A stretch of 59,266 bases of DNA, counting the filler. It is 6 parts of 6 records of this genome, joined end to end, with 100 filler letters (N's around TTAATTAATTAA, not from the genome) between each part and the next. Parts side by side here need not be neighbours in the genome. Positions count along the whole stretch, not along the records: positions 37,867 to 48,301 come from SRR22947727_2071; 5 more parts are not named here. One strand, written 5' to 3'. Shown piece by piece: positions 37,867 through 48,301 of the stretch; position 1 is the stretch's first letter; the number at the start of each line of letters is the position of its first letter. The notes beneath the pieces were generated by a model that ran no database searches, was not told where the DNA came from, and saw only the letters and a list, made by a program, of their open reading frames with translations. The translations under genes were made by a program, and so were the position numbers.

Positions 37867-37896
37867 CTGCCAGCGACTTTCTAGTAGTTCTGACAT
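37867..37896 (-). CDS. First 10 codons of the probable major capsid protein
   Basis: AAGGAG RBS then MSELLESRWQ, directly after the scaffold gene, matching T4-like gene order protease-scaffold-MCP. Confidence 0.6.
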
Positions 37897-37906
37897 CATT
37901 ATCTCC

Positions 37907-38998
37907 TTAATTTAATCCAGCAAGACGACGAATGTCTACTACATTACCGTCCTCTGCTTCTCTACTAACGTTAGATGTTTCTCGGTTGCCTGTGATTTCT
38001 TTGCCTTCTGTTATTTGCGCCTTTTTGGCTGGAGTATTCCCGTCTATTACTGCCGGTAGGTACTTGTCAAACTGAGTACGTAACTTTGCAGTTTGGACAG
38101 ATTCCAGTAAGTCTGTCATAATTTCACGTTGATCTTTACTTAATGGTGTAATTAACTCATTAAGTACGTCTTTTCTTTGTGCTTCTTCAGCAATACGTCT
38201 AATCTCTGCTTCTCTTGTTTCGACTAAACGTGTTTGTTCTTCAGCGTCTGCTTTTGCTTCTGCAAGTTGCTTTTCTTTTACGTCAACAACTTTCATTAGT
38301 TTGGCAGTTTCTGATTTTTCATTCAGGTAGCTGTTAGAATATTCTGCTGCGAAAGCTTCAAACAATTTACGACCAAAATCATTTCTACGTGCTGCTTCAA
38401 TATCTTCTTTTAGTTGAGTCATTTCTCCCTTAAGAGCTTTATCAACTGTTTCTGATACTGCTTTAGCACTTCTTTCAACAAAAGTTTTCTTAACTTTTGC
38501 GAAGTGTGTCTTAGCTTCACGCACAAGTTTAACCTTGGTTTCTGCTAAGTCTTTTTTGTCTTCGTAAAACTCTGCTATTTCTTTAGCAAGTGCTTCTACA
38601 ATAAATTCCTCAAGATGTGCAAATTTCTCTGCCATTGCTTTTTGGTCTTCATGTAATTCAGAAACTTCATTTGTTAACTGATCAAATACAAAACCTTTCA
38701 TTAGATCTGCGTTTTCACGCATTGCTATTGCATATTTTGCTTTTGCTTCAGCTAATTGTTTGCGGTCTTCTGCAAACTCTGAAATTTCTGCTTGAAGGCG
38801 TTCCTCAAGTAAAGCATCAATTGATTCAACCATAGCGGCTTTGTCATGTTCATACTTTTGAGCAAATTCTTCGCGGAGTTCAGCAGTCACTGACTGTTTG
38901 TTCTCTTTGATTTTTGAATTCCACGCATCTTCAATTTCGGCACGTACTTCTTCTGAAACTACATCGTTCTCGAAAAGTGTTTTTAGTGCTTCCAACAT
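37907..38998 (-). CDS. Phage prohead core/scaffold protein (gp22 position)
   Basis: Helical E/K/A-rich coiled coil between the prohead protease and the putative MCP. Confidence 0.75.
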   Translation of the reverse strand: MLEALKTLFENDVVSEEVRAEIEDAWNSKIKENKQSVTAELREEFAQKYEHDKAAMVESIDALLEERLQAEISEFAEDRKQLAEAKAKYAIAMRENADLMKGFVFDQLTNEVSELHEDQKAMAEKFAHLEEFIVEALAKEIAEFYEDKKDLAETKVKLVREAKTHFAKVKKTFVERSAKAVSETVDKALKGEMTQLKEDIEAARRNDFGRKLFEAFAAEYSNSYLNEKSETAKLMKVVDVKEKQLAEAKADAEEQTRLVETREAEIRRIAEEAQRKDVLNELITPLSKDQREIMTDLLESVQTAKLRTQFDKYLPAVIDGNTPAKKAQITEGKEITGNRETSNVSREAEDGNVVDIRRLAGLN

Positions 38999-39015
38999 AT
39001 TATTCTCCTCAAATT

Positions 39016-39639
39016 TTATCGGAGCTTGCTGATTAAATTAATCAGCGATTCCTTAAGATACTTTTGTGCCTTGTCGTCGTGCTTTGTTGCCTGTGCTAAT
39101 TCGTATGCCTTATACCCACCACGTGCATTCATTAAATGCTCGTAGATAGGCGTTGGATACGCCCCCGGAGCACTAGGCTGTGCAACGACATCCACGGTGA
39201 TTATTTCAAAACCTGAAACTTCACCGCTTCCGTCTTCTGACACATTGCCCGATCCCCTTGACGAGACACCTAATTTAACTCCGCTTTCCAGCATTGTTTT
39301 TACTAGGTTTCCCATCGGGGTTGGTAGGATTTTCATTTTTCCGTAACCATTTGGTCCATCCATCCAACATGATTCAATCATATGGGATACGCGGTCCAAA
39401 TTAATGTTAAGTCCTTCTGGATGATCAACTTCTCCGAGAACACTGTAGCCTCCTTCAATTTGATCGTTGAGAGTTTTGACAGCCCTACCAATTTCATTTA
39501 CAGGATATACACGTTGATTCGCATTGCGAACCCCGCCCTGTATGCAAATCCCCTTCATATAAAGGTCTTTGCCTTCATTAGCAGATTCAACGACTATTTG
39601 TGCTTGGTCAAATGTCAAATGCTCTCGTAGATTAATCAT
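39016..39639 (-). CDS. Prohead maturation protease (T4 gp21-like)
   Basis: KGICIQ, NANQRVYP, LGEVDHP, INLDRVSH, ILPTPMG, LGVSSRGSG, DVVAQPSAPGA. Confidence 0.93.
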   Translation of the reverse strand: MINLREHLTFDQAQIVVESANEGKDLYMKGICIQGGVRNANQRVYPVNEIGRAVKTLNDQIEGGYSVLGEVDHPEGLNINLDRVSHMIESCWMDGPNGYGKMKILPTPMGNLVKTMLESGVKLGVSSRGSGNVSEDGSGEVSGFEIITVDVVAQPSAPGAYPTPIYEHLMNARGGYKAYELAQATKHDDKAQKYLKESLINLISKLR

Positions 39640-39655
39640 CTATAAGTCCTCTTTC

Positions 39656-40654
39656 TTAGGAGCCAATTGTTGATTTCTTATTGGCTGCTGTTTCGCCTGC
39701 GCCTTTTTTCTCTGCGCCGTGGCCTTTTGGTTGAGCTTTCATTGATTTTGAAGCCTTTCCACCTGGTACATTAACGTTTCCTGCATTTTCTTCACTTTCT
39801 GAAGGATTTGCTAATCCGCCTGCTGTACCTTTAGTGTCAGCTTCGCCGCCTTGAACTAAGTTAGACGTTGTTCCGCCCATATCGTTCTTACCAGCTACAG
39901 TTGACTTGGTGTTTGTGCCTGACTCTTCTGACTTGTTAGAGCTAGAAGCTTCTAAACCGCCTTTGCCAGCAACTTTTTCTACGTATTCACGCATTTGTTC
40001 TGTTGCTGATTTTTCAGTTTCGTCTACTTCTTCGTCTGACTCATCAACTTCTTCGTCGTCTGACTCATCTACTTCTTCATCACTTGCTTCACCAAAGTTA
40101 AAGGCTTCTTCTTCCGAATCACCTTCTTCTTCATCTCCCATGTCAGCAACATCATCTTCGTCGCCTTCATCGGACATCATTTTTTCAAATTCTGCTTTAA
40201 GGTCATCTAGTGCATCTTCAAGATCAACTACGCGATCTTCTATTTCACCTTCTTCACCTTCTTCACCTTCTTCGCCGTCGCCTTCGTCGCCCATGGCATC
40301 TTCAATGTCACCCATCATGTCATCTGCTGGATCACCACCCATGTCGTCGTCTGCTTCGACTTCAAATTCGTCTAAATCAAAACCTTCATCGACGTCATCG
40401 TCTGACTCATCAACTTCTTCATCAGTTGCTTCGTCGACTTCTTCGTCTGCTTTTGCTTCGTCAACTTCTTCCTCTGAAGCTTCATCAACTTCTTCATCGG
40501 ATTCTTCATCAACTTCGATATCGTCTTCTAAAAGATTTTCATAAATCTCTCTAGATTTTTCTACAACGATTTCGTGAAATAATTCTTGTGCTGCTTCTTT
40601 GTTCTCGTTTACGAGAAGTTCAAGCATTTCTTCAAACTTATTACGATCTGCCAT
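39656..40654 (-). CDS. Highly acidic prohead core/internal protein
   Basis: D/E-rich 332 aa protein with repeated EEVDE units, in the head module, with its own late promoter. Confidence 0.75.
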   Translation of the reverse strand: MADRNKFEEMLELLVNENKEAAQELFHEIVVEKSREIYENLLEDDIEVDEESDEEVDEASEEEVDEAKADEEVDEATDEEVDESDDDVDEGFDLDEFEVEADDDMGGDPADDMMGDIEDAMGDEGDGEEGEEGEEGEIEDRVVDLEDALDDLKAEFEKMMSDEGDEDDVADMGDEEEGDSEEEAFNFGEASDEEVDESDDEEVDESDEEVDETEKSATEQMREYVEKVAGKGGLEASSSNKSEESGTNTKSTVAGKNDMGGTTSNLVQGGEADTKGTAGGLANPSESEENAGNVNVPGGKASKSMKAQPKGHGAEKKGAGETAANKKSTIGS

Positions 40655-40703
40655 TTTTTTTCTCCTATTATTGAAATATTACCTATGGAAAGGCTGTCAC
40701 TAT

Positions 40704-40711
40704 TATTTATA
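40704..40711 (-). promoter_or_regulatory. T4-type late promoter TATAAATA
   Basis: Exact consensus 50 nt upstream of the 40654 start. Confidence 0.8.
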
Positions 40712-40737
40712 TAATGTGTAGATATACGAGTGGAAAT

Positions 40738-40759
40738 AGGCCAAAAAGCGGCCTTTTTT
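40738..40759. terminator. Small hairpin, possible terminator
   Basis: AGGCC-AAAAAGC-GGCCT with a T run on the + strand and ATTT on the - strand, intergenic. Confidence 0.4.
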
Positions 40760-40770
40760 GACAGATCTTA

Positions 40771-41595
40771 TTAAATTTCGTATAATTCTTGAAATTCTTC
40801 AATCATTATGTTTTTAAAGTTGTCAAATTTATTTAGTTCTTCAGGACAATAGTTATCTGATGTTATTACTCTAATATAGTTAATGTGTGGATGATTTTTA
40901 ACTACATTTGTGGTTTGTCGCATCCAGTTACCAAAAAATGTAGCGCCATCGGCTGCTTTTTTATAATTTGGTGTGTCTGCGTATATATTATTAAACCGCT
41001 TTCCGTCTTCTAACCCCTTATAATCAAATCCTAAAATATAAATGGTACCGTAACCGTGCTGACTTGCTAGCCACAATGCTGTAGGTCCGCTTGACCAACC
41101 CTTAGACGGATTAAAAAAATTAAACTCTTTGTATCTAGTTAAAGTGCGTTGAGGATTGGTCCATACATTAGGATTTTTCTTATGATATCCTTCTCTATGC
41201 AGTTCTAAGCACATTTTTACATCAACTGCAACTAGATAATCTGGGTCAAATGATCTATAAATTGCATTACAACCATATATTGTGCCATGCTGTTTTAGAT
41301 TTTGCGGATCAATAGTACGTCTACTTGTGCCGTTGCCTAAAACAAATCCTACAGACGATGCTTGTTTTTCTGATAATCCTACTTTAGTTTGCACTACTGG
41401 TTTTTCTTTTTTAATTATTTTTGATGCATCTTGTTCTTGTACAGGTGCTGTTTGAGTTGGTATTGATTTTATTCTTTCTTTGTATTGAGTGTTACGCTCT
41501 TGTGCAAATTTTTTAAGTTCTTTTTCACGACGGCGCCAGGCCATCAATTTTTTAGCTTCTTGTTTAGAAAGATTTTCTTTTGATACTTTTGGCAA
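40771..41595 (-). CDS. Phage protein with Maf/DUF115/CstII-like glycosyltransferase-type domain
   Basis: FVLGNGTSR, YGCNAIYR, PDYLVAVD, SSGPTALWLA, GYGTIYILGFDY motif series; TTG start. Confidence 0.65.
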   Translation of the reverse strand: MPKVSKENLSKQEAKKLMAWRRREKELKKFAQERNTQYKERIKSIPTQTAPVQEQDASKIIKKEKPVVQTKVGLSEKQASSVGFVLGNGTSRRTIDPQNLKQHGTIYGCNAIYRSFDPDYLVAVDVKMCLELHREGYHKKNPNVWTNPQRTLTRYKEFNFFNPSKGWSSGPTALWLASQHGYGTIYILGFDYKGLEDGKRFNNIYADTPNYKKAADGATFFGNWMRQTTNVVKNHPHINYIRVITSDNYCPEELNKFDNFKNIMIEEFQELYEI

Positions 41596-41598
41596 TTA

Positions 41599-41844
41599 TT
41601 AAATCCCGCCTTCAGCATTTGCAGCAATACCGTACATTTGACGGATAAAGTCAAGTTCTTTAACTTGCTCTTCTTTATGCTGCTCACTTGCTTTCCTGGC
41701 GCGATTTATTTGACGTAGTGTTAATCTTGTTTTGCGTGTGTCGTCATAATTAACCGGAGACTCATCCTCAGATGGCTCATAACGATCATCCTCGATAGGT
41801 TCTAAAGTTTCTTTATCGTAATAAAATAATTCACGCAATATCAT
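41599..41844 (-). CDS. Small phage hypothetical protein (81 aa) downstream of the portal gene
   Basis: MILRELFY...RKTRLTLRQINRARK; fills the gap between genes and has a late promoter. Confidence 0.75.
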   Translation of the reverse strand: MILRELFYYDKETLEPIEDDRYEPSEDESPVNYDDTRKTRLTLRQINRARKASEQHKEEQVKELDFIRQMYGIAANAEGGI

Positions 41845-41849
41845 AATTG

Positions 41850-41857
41850 TATTTATA
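41850..41857 (-). promoter_or_regulatory. T4-type late promoter TATAAATA overlapping the portal stop codon
   Basis: Exact consensus only 5 nt before ATG 41844, implying a leaderless or near-leaderless transcript if used. Confidence 0.65.
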
Positions 41858-43598
41858 CCGTTTGGTCAGTTGCCGGTGGCGTTGCGCCAGGCTCAGTGCC
41901 TGTAGCAGATTCTGGGCTTGTGCCTTCACCGCCGTCTATTGGAGCTTCTCCTCCAGCAACAGTGTCTTCCATGTCACCCATGTCTGCATCTATACCTGCT
42001 CCACTTATGCCAGCGCCTCTCATTTCGCCTGCTGCATCTGTGGGTGGCGGAGTAAGATTTTCATCATTTTCTTCTCGCCATAATCTTTCATTTTGTGCTA
42101 TTTCTTCTTCACTTAAACCAAGATAGCGCATCATTGCAAATCTATTTGAAATATACGGCACTTGGCTCATTTGTGTATAAGTTGGAACTCTAGCATTATC
42201 CATTTCAGCTTGTCTGTAACTTGCAAAGTTTTGTGGTGGTTCCATTTTTAGATCAAACATAGCAGTGTCTATGTTTACACCTTTTTCCAGCAAATAGCGT
42301 TTGAATTCTTGATTAAATTCTTCAACTACTAAATTTTGCAAACGTTCACAATATGTATTAAATCTTAATTCTTGAATATATGCTGTACCAACTCGTCCGT
42401 CGTTGTACTGACTTGCACTATCGTCTGCACCAGTAGGAAGATAGGATGAAGGGATACGGAGACCGCGCACTAGTTTGTTAGTAAAATAACGTAAGTCGTC
42501 AATTTCACCTAAGTTAGTACCGCCTGGTAGTGTTTCAACTTTTGATCCTCTCCCTTCAGCAGTTTGTGGGAAGAAGTAGTCTTCGTTGATGCTCAACGGA
42601 TTGTAGGAACTGTCTATGACGTTCGTGCCACCTCCTGTCGAACTCGGTATGCGTCTCTGATGTATCTCAGTTTTTACCCTTTCGACAAACTGCATTGCCA
42701 AGTGACTTGGCATATTACCAACGTCTACATAAAACACTCTACGTTCAGGTGCTCTTTGTACACGATAGATAATAATTGCATCTTCAAGCAATTCTTTTTG
42801 CTTGTAGACTTTGAATATAGTTTCTAATAATGAATTACCAAATGGATAGTTTGTATCTAAGCCTTCTGATAGACTTAAATGTACAACGTGTTCTGCATCG
42901 ACTGCTATTTCACGATCTTCTGTCATGAATCTGCCACCGCCCATTGATTGTTGCGGTTTTCCGACCATTCCTCGAACACCACCTGTTAAATATCCGCTGC
43001 CACCGCCGGTGACATTTCCGTTTGTTTCGAAAGGTGTTGTTGCTACTAGTTCTCCAAAGTTTAAATTGAAGTTTCTAACAACATATTGTTCTGGTCGTTT
43101 GCCTTCGCTTTCGTTGACAATAATTTTTGTTACATTTGCAGGATCTACATGATACCATTTTTTAGTTTCAGGATCTCTTATAAAAAACGCATCGCCGTAC
43201 TTAAACGTATTTCGCAAAGTGCGGAACATACGTGTTTCAAATCTTTGCAACTTGCACCACTGTTGTAAGTATTGCTGTAATATTGTTGCTTCTGAATTTG
43301 TTGCTTTTTGCTTGAAGTTAATTTGAAATGGTGTTTTATTTTGTTTGTTTTGTTGAGTACAAAATTCTGCTAAAATATCTAGTGCTGCATTTACTTCAGA
43401 ATCTAAATCCATTGTGTTATAATGACCGTATCTTTCAACACGATTTGGACTTCCAACGTATACATCTGGTAAGTACGAACTATAGTTCGCTTTTGCAGGA
43501 CCTACTCCATTGCCGCCATTTTTGCTTCCAAGAGGTCCATAATTTCCGCTCGGGTTATTTGACGTAGGTATCGGTTCAAAATATTTTTTCCAACTCAT
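41853..43598 (-). CDS. Portal vertex protein (T4 gp20-like)
   Basis: LLEDAIIIYRVQRAPERRVFYVDVGNMP, EDYFFP, GRGSKVETLPGG, LRIPSSYL. Confidence 0.94.
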   Translation of the reverse strand: MSWKKYFEPIPTSNNPSGNYGPLGSKNGGNGVGPAKANYSSYLPDVYVGSPNRVERYGHYNTMDLDSEVNAALDILAEFCTQQNKQNKTPFQINFKQKATNSEATILQQYLQQWCKLQRFETRMFRTLRNTFKYGDAFFIRDPETKKWYHVDPANVTKIIVNESEGKRPEQYVVRNFNLNFGELVATTPFETNGNVTGGGSGYLTGGVRGMVGKPQQSMGGGRFMTEDREIAVDAEHVVHLSLSEGLDTNYPFGNSLLETIFKVYKQKELLEDAIIIYRVQRAPERRVFYVDVGNMPSHLAMQFVERVKTEIHQRRIPSSTGGGTNVIDSSYNPLSINEDYFFPQTAEGRGSKVETLPGGTNLGEIDDLRYFTNKLVRGLRIPSSYLPTGADDSASQYNDGRVGTAYIQELRFNTYCERLQNLVVEEFNQEFKRYLLEKGVNIDTAMFDLKMEPPQNFASYRQAEMDNARVPTYTQMSQVPYISNRFAMMRYLGLSEEEIAQNERLWREENDENLTPPPTDAAGEMRGAGISGAGIDADMGDMEDTVAGGEAPIDGGEGTSPESATGTEPGATPPATDQTV

Positions 43599-43608
43599 TT
43601 TTTATTCT

Positions 43609-46600
43609 CTATCCAAAAAGGTTATCGCTGTTCTTTTTAGTAACTTCAACAGTTTTCTTTGTATTGTTTGCAATCTGCACATTTGCTGCCAACATAGCCT
43701 GCATAGTTGTATTTAACTGATCTAGCTTATCTGCACCACCAGTGCCGGCTCCTTGAGCCGCTCCAATAGCATCTTGTACAGCAGTTTGGGCTTCGCCATT
43801 TGTTTCACCGTTTGCACCCATTGTTTCATTTAGTTTTTCTAAACTTGCAATTAAATCATTTAACGCTTTATTATAGTTGATTATTCCGTCTGTGTCAAGT
43901 CCTTCGGTAAACAATTTAAGATTTTCGCTAGATACTTGTCCAAAACTATTAAAAGTATTACCTAGTCCATTCATTATTGCGGCATTTTCACGAATTTTGT
44001 CTAAATCAAAGTCCATGTTTTCAAATGATTCTATGTCAGTTACTAACTTAGGAATGTTACCAAAGTCTAGTTTTGCTACTTCTACGCCGCTGAGTCCTGA
44101 CATTGCTTCGCCAAATAATTTTAATGCTTCTGCATTTATTTTTATTTGCTCGACGTTCTCAATTTTAGTTTTGCCAAATTCATTTAAGTCTGACAATACT
44201 GTCATTCCACCTTCTTCGCCATTAAAGAATGCACTAACGCCACCTAACAATCCGCCGCTTGAATCTCTATCTACATTTGCCGGGGCTGCTGCCATTGCTT
44301 CGCCGAATAATTTTAATGCTTCTGCGTTTGCTATTACATTTTCTATATTAGCAACTTTTACTGCTCCAAACTCTGCTACATCTTTTAAAACAGATATGCC
44401 GCCTTCTTCGCCATTAAAGAATGCACCAATGCCTCCTAACAGTCCGCCAACTTTTTCTCTTTCTACTGCGGGGACGCTTGTCATTGCTTCGCCAAATGCT
44501 TTTACAGCTTCGGAGTTTTTCTTAATTGTTTCTTGATTAAATTCTACTGCGCCAAATAATAATATTTCGTTAATTGGCAATTTTGTTTTAGAGCCAAAGA
44601 AGCTTGCTACGCCGCCTAAAAGCCCGCCTACTGCTTGTTGTGTTACTCCGCCGCCAAATGCTGCCATTGCATCACCAAATGCTACTACAGCTTCTGAATT
44701 TCGTTTGATTGCTTCTGCTGGCAAAACATACGATCCAAATTTAGATATTTCATCGTACGGTATATCTGTGTCTGCTCCAAAGAACCCTGCAATACCGGAT
44801 ACTAATCCACCAATGCCGGTCATTGCTGCGCCGGCACCTTGCTTAGCCATTGCATCACTAAATGCTACTAGTGCTTGAGCGTTTCTTTCAACTGCTGCGC
44901 CGTCAATGTTAGCTTCACTAAATTTCTTTAGTTTTGTAAGAGGATCGTCTCCTCCAAACAGTCCAGTAATGCCTTCAGCAATTCCGCCAACTAAATTTCC
45001 TAATCCGGATACTGCTGATCCTGCTCCGAACGCTGCCAAACCTAATCCGATAGCTCCCATTCCTTTACCAGTATCTATAAGAGCTCTACCGTCTAACTCT
45101 TCAAAAGATTTCATTCCTTCGGCTAATGTAGGTAACGCTTTACCTACAAGGAACGTAGCGCCGGCAATACCTGCGCCTATAGCAGCAATAGCAGTACCAA
45201 ACACTACAGCACCAATAGCAACTGCTGGATTAGCAAAGGCTGCTATGCCTGATGCTAGTCCTTTCATACCTGCTCCGGCACCTTTACCTATAGCAGAACC
45301 TGCTCCGCCTGCGGCTTTTCCAGCGCCGCCCATCATGCCGCCAACGCCTTTGGCTGCTTTCATTGCAAGAAATGCTGCTGCTACTGCTCCTAACACTTTA
45401 GGATTAGTAAGCATACTGACAAATGCATTGCCCATCATACCGCCAAGTGCTCCAAATGCATCGCCAATATATTTCTTTAAAGTAGCGCCTAAGCCGAACT
45501 CTTTAATGTCTTCTATAAATCCTTTTATACCTTGGGCAACATTGTCAACTGCTTCTTTCATAGAATTTAAGCCGTCGTCACTAGTAAAGTAATCTATTAC
45601 TCCTGCAAATGCTTTTTCAATTTCTTGAAATACGCCGCTTTGTATTAATGCGCCAAATATTATGTTTCTTGCTTCAGTAATTCTTCTTTCAAAGTCAAGC
45701 AATCCTTTGTTACCAGCATTCATTTGTTTTTGTTGATCTGATAACGCTTCAGCTGAATTTAATCCAGCTTTACTCATACCCATTAATGCAAGATCTGCAT
45801 CAAACGCAGTGTTTCCTAATGCTTGTGTTAATCCGATAGTTTTACGTTGCTCTTCGCTCATGCCTTCTAGGCCTTGTGCGGTTTTGCGTACTTCGGCCAT
45901 GTATTCTTCTTGTGTTACACTTCCGTCTGCAAGGCCAGCAGCCATTGTGCCTAAGTTAGGATTAAGACGTACTAAACTTTTGCCAAAGTCTGATACTGGT
46001 ACTCCGCCGGTGGCAACCATGTTTTTAACAGCGTCGGCCATTTCAGGACTTGAGCTTTCGATAATACTTAATGTACTTGTAAGATTTTCTCTTATACCGG
46101 CATCCATAGTGCCCATCATTGCTTTAAGTCGCTTATCAAGTGTTGCTGTTTTTAATTCTTGAGCTATCTGTTCTCTTTGTTTGCCTGTAACTTTTGCAAG
46201 ATAATCTAATTGTTTTACATAGTTGCCAGTTCCGTTTGCAAGTTGCTGGTCGCTCATTTTCTGACTTCTACCTAGTTTTGTTTGTAATTCTAGATAATCT
46301 GCTGTGAATTGAGCAGTTTCTTCCATTTGCAAACCTAATGCACTAAACTGCGGTCCAAATTGTTTTTGTACAATGCCACTTACATTTTTAAATGTTCTAG
46401 CACCTTCAGCTGCTCCGCCTCCTAGTAATGCTAAACTTTCAGCATTTTGAGAAATTGTGTTTGCAAATGTTGACATACTAAGTCCGGCTTGTGTTGCAGC
46501 ATTTTTAGCATCAAATAAACTTGAGCCAAATGATACACCACTACTAGATAGTTGTCTAAAAGTATCAATCTGAGAATCGATAACTCCTACAAATAATTGA

Positions 46601-46998
46601 GCCGCACCGCCTAATACTCCGCCTATAACAGGTATTTCTTTCATTGCTCCTGTTACATGACTAGTAAAATCACTAAGTCGGTCACCGCCTATTAAAAATT
46701 CTTCTGCCAGACCAGTAAACATTTTAGATACTGTGCCAAACGCATTTTTCATTGTCTCAGCTGTTGTTTGCGATGCTTCGCCTAATTCTTCAACTTGTTC
46801 TTTGCTTATGTCAGCGTTGTCGCCTAACTGTTTAACTGCTTTAGAAGTTTCTTCAGAGGTAGAGGCAGATCCTGAACCACCTTGACCTTTGCCCATCTTT
46901 TCGACTGCTTTGAGCAAAAGTAATAATGTAGTTTCGGTCGCGGCATCATTAAGCTCAATGTCTTCGCCGCCCCATGTTCCTTTTACAGGTCCTGCCAT
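43609..46998 (-). CDS. Probable tail tape measure protein (1129 aa)
   Basis: Long A/G-rich helical protein with a central hydrophobic stretch and five ~60-aa repeats, next to a putative tail assembly chaperone. Confidence 0.72.
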   Translation of the reverse strand: MAGPVKGTWGGEDIELNDAATETTLLLLLKAVEKMGKGQGGSGSASTSEETSKAVKQLGDNADISKEQVEELGEASQTTAETMKNAFGTVSKMFTGLAEEFLIGGDRLSDFTSHVTGAMKEIPVIGGVLGGAAQLFVGVIDSQIDTFRQLSSSGVSFGSSLFDAKNAATQAGLSMSTFANTISQNAESLALLGGGAAEGARTFKNVSGIVQKQFGPQFSALGLQMEETAQFTADYLELQTKLGRSQKMSDQQLANGTGNYVKQLDYLAKVTGKQREQIAQELKTATLDKRLKAMMGTMDAGIRENLTSTLSIIESSSPEMADAVKNMVATGGVPVSDFGKSLVRLNPNLGTMAAGLADGSVTQEEYMAEVRKTAQGLEGMSEEQRKTIGLTQALGNTAFDADLALMGMSKAGLNSAEALSDQQKQMNAGNKGLLDFERRITEARNIIFGALIQSGVFQEIEKAFAGVIDYFTSDDGLNSMKEAVDNVAQGIKGFIEDIKEFGLGATLKKYIGDAFGALGGMMGNAFVSMLTNPKVLGAVAAAFLAMKAAKGVGGMMGGAGKAAGGAGSAIGKGAGAGMKGLASGIAAFANPAVAIGAVVFGTAIAAIGAGIAGATFLVGKALPTLAEGMKSFEELDGRALIDTGKGMGAIGLGLAAFGAGSAVSGLGNLVGGIAEGITGLFGGDDPLTKLKKFSEANIDGAAVERNAQALVAFSDAMAKQGAGAAMTGIGGLVSGIAGFFGADTDIPYDEISKFGSYVLPAEAIKRNSEAVVAFGDAMAAFGGGVTQQAVGGLLGGVASFFGSKTKLPINEILLFGAVEFNQETIKKNSEAVKAFGEAMTSVPAVEREKVGGLLGGIGAFFNGEEGGISVLKDVAEFGAVKVANIENVIANAEALKLFGEAMAAAPANVDRDSSGGLLGGVSAFFNGEEGGMTVLSDLNEFGKTKIENVEQIKINAEALKLFGEAMSGLSGVEVAKLDFGNIPKLVTDIESFENMDFDLDKIRENAAIMNGLGNTFNSFGQVSSENLKLFTEGLDTDGIINYNKALNDLIASLEKLNETMGANGETNGEAQTAVQDAIGAAQGAGTGGADKLDQLNTTMQAMLAANVQIANNTKKTVEVTKKNSDNLFG

Positions 46999-47024
46999 AT
47001 TTTTATTATCCTATAATATACGCA

Positions 47025-47064
47025 TATAAATACAAGAGATACATATGTGTATATTGTATTTATA
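47025..47064. promoter_or_regulatory. Pair of opposed T4-type late promoters (TATAAATA + at 47025-47032, - at 47057-47064) in a 40-bp imperfect palindrome
   Basis: TATAAATACAAGAGATACAT|ATGTGTATATTGTATTTATA, 17 of 20 positions symmetric. Confidence 0.82.
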
Positions 47065-47075
47065 CGGAGAACGAT

Positions 47076-47939
47076 ATGGCAGAAATTACTTCACAGGGAT
47101 CTAACCCTTTACAGAAATATTTTAGACAACCTAAGTTGTACTTAACTTTACCTAGTAACGGAAAGTATTACCCACCAGGAGTATTAGAGCAATCAGAAAC
47201 AGGAGAATATGCTGTATTTTCTATGACTGCAAAAGATGAGCTGGCGTTTAAAACACCAGATGCACTTATTAACGGACAGTCTACCGTTGATGTAATAGAA
47301 AGTTGCATACCTAATATTAAAAATGCATGGCTAATGCCAAGTTTAGATTTAGACGCTGCGTTAATTGCGATTAGAATAGCAACTTACGGTGAAATGATGA
47401 ACGTTTCTACAACTATTCCAAATATTGATGAAGAACGTGAATTTCAAATGGATTTAAGACCGTTGTTAGAAAAGTTTAATACTATTCAGTTTGACGATGC
47501 TGTTTATATTGACGATCTTGTTATTACAATCAAACCTATGAACTACAAAGAGTTCACACAAAACGCATTAAAGACATTTGAAGAACAACGTGTGTTTGCT
47601 CTTGTAAATGACGACTCGTTTACTGAAGAAGAAAAAATTGAAAGATTTAATGTTAGTTTTAAAAAATTAACAGAATTAACTGTTGGAATGATTATTTCTA
47701 GCGTAGTATCAATCCAAGTCGGTGAAGAAACTGTTACAGATAAAAATCAAATAAAAGAATTTATTGAAAATGCTGATAAAAAGTTTTATAACATTATTAC
47801 CGATCACATTACTAGCCAAAAAGACAAATACACCTTAGAACCAATGAAAGTTATGTCTGACAAAGAAGACCAAGACAAAGGTGCGCCGGCAGAATTTGAA
47901 GTTCCAATTACATTTGACCAAGCAAATTTTTTCGGATAA
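47076..47939 (+). CDS. T4 gp26-like baseplate hub / tail assembly chaperone (287 aa)
   Basis: GGAG RBS before ATG 47076. NPLQKYFRQPK, LPSNGKYY, MTAKDE, DLDAALIAIRIATYGE, and terminal FDQANFFG. Confidence 0.8.
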   Translation: MAEITSQGSNPLQKYFRQPKLYLTLPSNGKYYPPGVLEQSETGEYAVFSMTAKDELAFKTPDALINGQSTVDVIESCIPNIKNAWLMPSLDLDAALIAIRIATYGEMMNVSTTIPNIDEEREFQMDLRPLLEKFNTIQFDDAVYIDDLVITIKPMNYKEFTQNALKTFEEQRVFALVNDDSFTEEEKIERFNVSFKKLTELTVGMIISSVVSIQVGEETVTDKNQIKEFIENADKKFYNIITDHITSQKDKYTLEPMKVMSDKEDQDKGAPAEFEVPITFDQANFFG

Positions 47940-47988
47940 GGATCTTAACCTGGCCTACTGACAAAATTTTAAACGAGGTTAAGGTCCT
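47924..47988 (+). promoter_or_regulatory. Candidate -1 programmed ribosomal frameshift signal (slippery heptamer plus 13-bp stem-loop)
   Basis: A_AAT_TTT (47924-47930) and T_TTT_TTC (47927-47933), both in the reading frame. Stem 47939-47951 pairs with 47976-47988. Confidence 0.78.
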
Positions 47989-48163
47989 AGAACGGCAACA
48001 AAAACAGTTTAAATTAGACCTAATGAGAATTTCTTGGTTTATGCGCGGAAGCGTTACGTTAGAAGATGTTTATTGCATGGGTCCAGATGACCGTGAAATT
48101 TGTTCTACTCTTATCCAAGACAATCTTGAAACAACTAAAAAATCAGGAATGCCTTTCTTTTAA
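47930..48163 (+). CDS. -1 frame extension (77 aa) of the gp26-like chaperone, GT/gp51-like
   Basis: FRIRILTWPTDKILNEVKVLERQQKQFKLDLMRISWFMRGSVTLEDVYCMGPDDREICSTLIQDNLETTKKSGMPFF*. The frame opens at 47918 and its stop overlaps the stop of the convergent gene. Confidence 0.72.
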   Translation, partial: FRIRILTWPTDKILNEVKVLERQQKQFKLDLMRISWFMRGSVTLEDVYCMGPDDREICSTLIQDNLETTKKSGMPFF

Positions 48164-48301
48164 GCAGTATTTTTAGTTAATTCTTTTTGCAATGCTGCTT
48201 TTATTTCGCTAGCCGCTTCAGGCGGTAACTTTTTAATTTCTGCTGCAAGTGTTTGAATATCAATATCAGTTCCTGCTTGTGGCTCTTGTGCTGCCGCAGT
48301 G
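48160..48301 (-). CDS. C-terminal fragment of a phage hypothetical protein
   Basis: TAAAQEPQAGTDIDIQTLAAEIKKLPPEAASEIKAALQKELTKNTA*. Confidence 0.6.

Follow-up and report, generated by a model that had tools for sequence, protein, structure and literature searches.

A gp26-like late gene of a T4-superfamily phage is probably a frameshifted tape measure chaperone gene of the G/GT kind, with T4 gp26 and gp51 as its likely duplicated equivalents

Xu, Hendrix and Duda reportedly described in 2004 a -1 frameshift that is conserved among tail assembly chaperone genes. In an excerpt of a 2016 review (PMC5009743) the G-T frameshift is given as conserved in these genes "except T4", and in lambda many short chains are said to coat the tape measure protein, with a few long ones recruiting the tail tube. 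An excerpt of PMC3004832 lists T4 gp26 and gp51 as hub assembly chaperones, gp51 being essential and of unknown function, and mentions some genetics that places gp26 in the hub. Proposed chaperone roles for both proteins are mentioned in a passage of PMC9024508, and GenBank record MN662249 already names both gp26 and gp51 "tape measure protein assembly chaperone". The authors of a study on a Vi01-like phage found no tape measure chaperone in it, according to an excerpt (PMC6509524). A search of titles, abstracts and passages of openly available papers found no report of a frameshift in gp26-like genes.

The window analysed here is a stretch of 59,266 nucleotides (1-59266) composed of six unrelated fragments with GC contents of 23-62%, separated by spacers of N44, 12 bases and N44, so that gene adjacency across spacers carries no meaning. 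The phage fragment occupies 37867-48301, and the other fragments are unrelated to it. It holds a T4-type prohead protease, a T4-type portal, a gene for 1129 aa on the minus strand and, divergent from the latter, the 287-aa ORF under study. The features needed below are the following.

41853..43598, minus strand: T4 gp20-like portal gene (PF07230, E 5e-112), in a gene order as in RaK2, 121Q and PA5oct
43609..46998, minus strand: gene of an Ala/Gly-rich virion protein of 1129 aa, presumed tape measure, divergent neighbour (phrog_14121, E 9e-11)
47025..47032, plus strand: TATAAATA, T4-type late promoter motif 5' of the chaperone-like gene
47057..47064, minus strand: TATAAATA, the same motif directed toward the 1129-aa gene
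47076..47939, plus strand: gp26-like gene, zero frame, with a 287-aa short (G-like) product (PF12322, E 5e-9; phrog_150, E 8e-11; model pLDDT 95)
47103..47393, plus strand: N-terminal domain, residues 10-106, with a predicted tail-assembly-chaperone-like fold
47924..47930, plus strand: overlapping second heptamer A_AAT_TTT, dispensable, from which the same 362-aa product is expected
47927..47933, plus strand: slippery heptamer T_TTT_TTC at Phe285-Phe286, the conserved candidate shift site
47933..48163, plus strand: -1 frame extension of 76 codons and stop, a T-like tail
47939..47988, plus strand: hairpin, candidate stimulator, starting 5 nt 3' of the heptamer
47968..48013, plus strand: proposed pseudoknot stem, 47968-47974 with 48007-48013
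48160..48301, minus strand: 3' end of a convergent gene, truncated by the fragment end

A sequence-only reading of this locus had given the extents of the ORF, both in-register heptamers, the stem arms, the loop complementarity and the limits of the -1 frame, and all were confirmed. Contigs of two public runs, one of them possibly the source sample, agree with the window over 47747-48300 without a difference or gap, and a third run covers 47829-48006; the frame change is therefore not an assembly indel, and this trivial origin of the -1 frame was ruled out. The contig of one RNA run covers 47547-47723 only and is uninformative on expression.

At least half of the words of the window occur in 5 of the 21 public runs listed, four of these five being labelled marine or seawater. 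Of 50,697 phage records 93 match the 287-aa ORF; Atu_ph07, Phosso and PA5oct come first, with 30-34% identity, and RaK2-like phages next. In a 28-row tree the 287-aa protein groups with the jumbo phages at 100/100. The order of portal, long gene and divergent hub gene is common to RaK2, 121Q, PA5oct and Phosso and is not found in Atu_ph07. The fragment comes from an uncultured marine giant phage, whose 287-aa ORF is closest to those of the RaK2-like jumbo phages. Between portal and protease lies a 274-aa ORF (40771-41595, minus strand) with a strong match to phrog_30607 and a weak one to the sialyltransferase-like phrog_4603 (E 1.6e-5). The ORF adjoining the prohead protease (39656-40654, minus strand; 332 aa) is very acidic and repetitive and has no family match; a virion protein is found at this place in relatives.

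The motifs in the gap between the divergent genes were labelled by what we take to be the T4-type late promoter consensus. A motif like that at 47025-47032 is found on the plus strand in 42/44 distinct upstream regions, and one like that at 47057-47064 on the minus strand in 19/44. The two face each other within the 77-nt gap (47025-47064), both being present in 18 of the 44 distinct relatives, so that late transcripts of the two genes would overlap at their 5' ends. Matches to sigma-70 promoters were near chance level (8 vs 5.1).

The zero-frame protein matches the PF12322 T4_baseplate profile with 36.6 bits against a cut-off of 24.5. Its whole model resembles predicted structures of gp26-like proteins of CP220, Aeromonas phage 25 and others; against the PDB, Foldseek gave no match at E 0.001 and VIA-align gave helical hairpins only. 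Whole-protein fold searches were thus uninformative, and a single-domain search was needed. Compared with 48,161 chains, the model of the N-terminal domain (pLDDT 88) matched 13 at Z >= 2, headed by YqbN (3KLU; Z 5.8, rmsd 4.2, 86 aligned), the HK97 tail assembly chaperone gp13 (2OB9; Z 5.4, rmsd 4.7, 83 aligned) and Rbstp2171 (3FGX; Z 4.8, rmsd 4.2, 81 aligned), before a drop to Z 3.0 in the fourth row. All three are named tail assembly chaperones in an excerpt of PMC9603447, which gives Z 4.4-4.5 for another member. The model hence points, with modest scores (Z < 8) whose rank order carries the weight, to a tail assembly chaperone fold in this domain. The secondary structure of the model hints at an internal repeat, and BLASTP found none in the short protein. 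Most of the distant relatives in our alignment have two Cys-x-x-Cys motifs, neither of which is present in the 287-aa protein. The homologue in Yersinia phage fHe-Yen9-04 (L183:689-1564) is labelled a heavy-metal-transporting ATPase, evidently wrongly.

Both overlapping heptamers had been put forward as slip sites, and only T_TTT_TTC proved invariant. In the close set of 80 IMG/VR loci (the best 80 of 338 confirmed) it is found in all 78 that reach the stop (42 distinct over 90 nt), while A_AAT_TTT is found in 68 of these. All 80 cyanophage loci (52 distinct; the best 80 of 565) have T_TTT_TTC, and none has A_AAT_TTT. Of 59 loci in a third set of greater diversity, 17 were duplicates and 3 lacked a part; among the other 39, all distinct, 38 combine the heptamer with a tail in the -1 frame and one is fused; the seeds Atu_ph07 and T4 returned near-identical loci only. 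The second Phe codon at the site is always TTC, whereas upstream Phe codons of the same genes are TTT in 72% (close) and 85% (cyanophage) of cases. The control consisted of the 225 Phe-Phe pairs in another 306 long ORFs (counting shadow ORFs) from the close loci; 13 of these pairs have T_TTT_TTC. The heptamer and the -1 ORF exceed chance expectation.

Of 18 cultured phages, hand-picked for spread over many families, 16 have T_TTT_TTY; the two others, Vi01 and Vibrio D493 (L188:1435-2400, L189:983-1900), lack the full heptamer and keep the -1 tail behind sites relaxed to A_ATT_TTC and A_CTT_TTC, which would let just one tRNA re-pair well. Heptamer and -1 tail are present in all eight RaK2-like jumbo phages, and the heptamer is retained across proteins down to about 25% identity, these being related and not independent sequences. 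No Shine-Dalgarno-like motif precedes the slip site in any of 36 distinct loci, so that a 5' stimulator of such kind is absent.

In place of ribosomal slippage, RNA polymerase might add one U within the T run and so give the long form, an explanation to which we attach hardly any probability. The site is a homopolymer run, longer still in Melnitz-2. A run of six T is short for polymerase slippage in bacteria; it is moreover fixed in the X_XXY_YYZ register, and the hairpin follows at ribosome spacing. That bacteria use polymerase slippage is stated in an excerpt of PMC5009743.

The -1 frame opens after the TGA at 47915-47917, has its first ATG at 48023 and ends in a stop at 48161-48163 that overlaps the stop of the convergent gene. 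By a -1 slip on T_TTT_TTC after Phe286 its 76 codons would be joined to 286 residues, giving a long product of 362 aa. The length is 76 codons in all 73 complete close loci. Over 44 rows the -1 frame has zero stops, where the other frames have 6-7 in each row. A coding pattern, with the second position least and the third most variable, is seen as early as codons 1-15, within which the -1 ORF is thus already constrained as a coding sequence. The proposal that a -1 shift yields products of 287 and 362 aa is thus borne out as far as conservation of heptamer and -1 ORF can do so, and we regard it as very likely that the frameshift at T_TTT_TTC operates.

The -1 ORF could instead be a second gene translated alone, by restart at a codon overlapping the zero-frame stop or from an internal Met, with the T run conserved merely as a Phe-Phe end. 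In the 78 close loci the codon on the zero-frame stop is ATA in 58, ATG in 16, CTA in 3 and GTA in 1; the resulting ATGA overlap, found also in several cultured phages, would permit a restart, and many records annotate a separate gp51, but in 62/78 the overlapping codon is ATA, CTA or GTA. The first ATG, GTG or TTG falls anywhere in codons 0-35 (73 close loci), PA5oct has no start codon in 73 codons of the -1 frame, and the invariant Met of the frame lacks a preceding Shine-Dalgarno-like motif in all 43 rows. The earlier statement that the downstream ORF has no independent start or ribosome binding site thus agrees with these data; there is no conserved start in the clade of the window. The cyanophages do keep a possible start, within three codons in 77/77 complete loci and as an ATG two codons on in 72, which favours separate translation there, and restart may add free tail in these phages. 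Against separate genes, Phe-Phe does not call for T_TTT_TTC, as the control pairs show, and natural fused forms join the two parts at the slip-site point. In RaK2, PA5oct, Yen9-04, XaC1 and Munch, moreover, the zero frame extends 3-11 codons beyond the site while the -1 frame is open from there on. Separate translation as the whole explanation therefore appears very improbable to us, and we retain the frameshift.

The hairpin downstream of the site has long-register arms at 47939-47951 and 47976-47988 that form 13 pairs with one G-U, and it is the minimum-energy fold (z -2.34; 4/200 shuffles as good). The mean z of 39 distinct close rows is -1.2 to -1.3 for the 60 nt after the site and lies between -0.4 and +0.2 at six other offsets; for 45 cyanophage rows it is -2.2 to -2.9 after the site, compared with -1.4 and -0.9 at two other offsets. 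The stem proposed earlier stands in so far as a hairpin is common among relatives, but its register shifts: the 5' arm is fixed and the partner varies, with at least 7/8 pairs in the near register (5' arm with 47963-47970) in 28/40 rows, in the far register in 12/40 and in either in 31/40. Most relatives thus use the near register and the window belongs to a minority with the far one. The covariation that had been called for is seen in the near register, where 85.6% of cells are paired and 25 two-sided changes compare with 10.7 in shuffles, a control that ignores kinship. The hairpin is weak in RaK2 and LPCS28. Overall it exceeds chance moderately and is a probable helper of the frameshift.

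An H-type pseudoknot had also been proposed and was rejected as a conserved feature: the two stems co-occur in 1/40 aligned rows, which is the window itself. Its second stem is a weak duplex (-2.6 kcal/mol) that reaches 7/7 pairs in none of 39 relatives, with 56.8% of its cells paired. The mean of 3.9/7 pairs in relatives, compared with 2.0 for slid registers, may be explained by shared coding letters.

Scans of 39 tails against Pfam and PHROGs gave no family at E < 0.01. In hhalign comparisons the tails of the jumbo clade match those of other T4-like phages (E 2.7e-5), and the latter match residues 206-247 of T4-type gp51 (E 1.8e-7, probability 94); neither group matches gp26. Compared directly with T4 gp51, the jumbo-clade tails give a weak match (E 0.0027, probability 11); the close-clade tails alone aligned to a wrong region of gp51, which was corrected once more diverse tails were added. 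The -1 tail, akin to the small "gp51" ORFs, thus appears related to the gp51 C-terminus through a two-step profile link. A lead on tail identity is an Atlas cluster at 0.92 that holds PF28602 Gp51_C on 35% of its 55 members.

T4 gp51 spans positions 13-280 of phrog_150 and gp26 just 14-235, and gp51 is a paralogue of gp26 with an added tail. T_TTT_TTY is absent from the end of gene 26 in all four two-gene phages examined (T4, avDM4, RB16 and Stupor); in RB16 another in-frame heptamer is found toward the end of gene 26. Five frameshift-type cultured genomes and three contigs of the window's clade have one family copy each, and T4 and RB16 have two each. In the 28-row tree nine gp26 and gp51 rows make up one side of a branch at 79/89, by which a single clade of T4-type gp26/gp51 pairs is neither shown nor rejected.

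In-frame fusions of both parts were found in 4 proteins of 335-352 aa among 7,996 longer candidates scored; P0151 and P0152, each known from one record, may be erroneous, and the DNA context was checked for one of the four. This one, on a 260-kb jumbo-phage contig (L194:5001-6923; same sequence in L195), is a 350-aa fused gene followed by a tailless copy of 272 aa, 42% identical to it. Both copies lack the heptamer at junction or end, and they adjoin a long divergent gene related to the 1129-aa gene of the window. As judged from these sequences, L194 has reached separately, in a jumbo lineage, the T4 solution of a short copy and a fused long copy, and loss of the slip site appears to go with such a duplication in both cases. 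Seven representatives of 269-276 aa (P0054, P0055, P0068, P0081, P0093, P0135 and P0145) are without terminal Phe-Phe; P0145 is 64% identical to the short copy of L194 and the other six about 32-33%. These proteins may represent the short copy in other lineages where the gene was duplicated.

The earlier suggestion that the gene lies beside a tape measure gene stands in part. The neighbouring 1129-aa protein has 28% Ala+Gly, 1.4% Pro and hydrophobic segments, and phrog_14121 is the family of RaK2 ORF088, whose record notes similarity to tape measure protein. A homologue of it lies divergently within 400 nt of the chaperone-like gene in 61/71 loci. Composition, record note and linkage make it the presumed tape measure gene. 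The two genes are head-to-head, not in one operon with the chaperone upstream, and no tube gene adjoins, which differs from the G/GT order; in P-SSM2, AsFcp_4 and LPCS28 the gp26-like gene is on the same strand as long genes and upstream of them. To our knowledge G-type chaperones are absent from virions. One peptide of a gp26 homologue was detected in LIMEstone1 virions, as given in an excerpt of PMC3296691. The Atu_ph07 paper, in the passage concerned, assigns the tape measure to another gene (PMC6102473).

Both observations speak against the G/GT reading. The frameshift may be real and both forms may yet be baseplate-hub assembly factors with gp27, gp5 and gp28 as clients, the likeness to G/GT being confined to the recoding. 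The published listing of T4 gp26 and gp51 and the genetics on gp26 (PMC3004832, in excerpt) agree with this, the 287-aa protein is more than twice as long as the three matched chaperone structures, and linkage to the tape measure is loose, there being no tape-measure-like gene adjoining the gp26-like gene in Atu_ph07, PhiW-14 and Vi01. However, the best structure matches of the N-terminal domain are tape measure chaperones, and the divergent linkage in most loci points the same way. The tape measure gp29 of T4 is itself counted as a hub protein in the same excerpt (PMC3004832), so that hub and tape measure readings overlap. A purely hub-directed function is in our view improbable, and a G/GT-like tape measure chaperone role of the short and long pair is probable by analogy.

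The scheme that we infer, including slippage by the ribosome, the role of the hairpin, the product ratio and the binding partners, would be as follows. The gene would be transcribed late from the TATAAATA motif at 47025-47032, and most ribosomes would stop one codon after Phe-Phe to give the 287-aa protein. In a minority the tRNA-Phe pair on UUU and UUC would slip back one base together on U_UUU_UUC to UUU UUU, probably aided by the hairpin 5 nt downstream, and these ribosomes would add the 76-residue tail to make 362 aa. The shared part would most likely coat the tape measure protein and the tail, like lambda T, would most likely connect the chaperone-tape measure complex with the tail tube or hub, with both forms presumably needed in a set ratio. 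Lineages that lose the slip site would come to have two genes by duplication, as gp26 (short) and gp51 (long) in T4 and separately in the L194 jumbo phage. We consider it likely that this is one late gene read in two ways as a frameshifted G/GT-like tape measure chaperone, with the T4 pair as its duplicated equivalents.

The earlier idea that pairs of gp26-like and small gp51-like genes form one recoded G/GT-type gene is in line with the conservation of heptamer and tail and with the chaperone-like fold. It is tempting to go further, and we lean, somewhat less firmly, toward a G/GT principle without the T4 exception. Gene "26" would be a recoded G/GT gene across the T4 superfamily, by which we mean Kyanoviridae, Ackermannviridae, Pootjesviridae, part of Straboviridae and the RaK2-like jumbo phages, and the small "gp51" ORFs would be its -1 tails. 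On at least two occasions a duplication, giving a short gene and a fused long one, would have taken the place of the frameshift, so that T4 gp26 would be G and gp51 GT, a tape measure chaperone recruiting the tail tube. If true, this would remove the exception stated, in the excerpt of PMC5009743, for a very widespread phage recoding event, give T4 gp51 and gp26 a role that can be tested, and put right how a core gene is annotated in many phage genomes, which now list the tail as a separate gp51, as a hypothetical protein or not at all. The two duplications, in which a gene pair replaces the frameshift, would be a natural test of why both forms persist. The gene would also be a predicted target in T4-like phages for the chaperone-sensing defence protein Avs17 (PMC13581612, in excerpt).

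Compared with known systems, the locus shares with lambda gpG/gpGT the use of one gene for a short and a -1 extended product with a slip site just before the stop, and with lambda-type chaperones a predicted N-terminal fold like that of HK97 gp13, YqbN and Rbstp2171. It differs in belonging to the T4 superfamily, the review's named exception, in the greater length of its short product relative to those three structures, and in being divergent from the presumed tape measure gene, not upstream of it. Recoding and fold thus agree with G/GT and gene order does not, so the 287-aa gene is not a plain member of that group. The comparison with P2 gpE/E' that had been suggested gave no match for either part: the short protein has no profile match to gpE, and the -1 tails do not match the single E' sequence, the one G/T pair compared (E 0.12 and 0.047). 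P2 E / E+E' (NC_001895) nevertheless resembles the present gene in contractile tail, -1 shift at a T run near the end of the chaperone gene and short tail; it differs in that gpE has 91 aa and that the tape measure gene directly follows E. The "baseplate hub" genes of the RaK2-like phages Atu_ph07, Phosso, PA5oct, RaK2, 121Q, fHe-Yen9-04, XaC1 and Munch are 27-34% identical to that of the window; none of the eight records annotates a frameshift; six give the tail as a hypothetical gene of its own, and those of PA5oct and RaK2 leave it without annotation. The comparison with T4, also suggested earlier, did yield a family and a tail link. T4 gp26 (208 aa) would correspond to the short form and gp51 (249 aa) to the short form plus a related tail, both in the same family (PF12322, phrog_150); the two are separate genes without T_TTT_TTY at the end of gene 26, whereas the phage of the window has one recoded gene.
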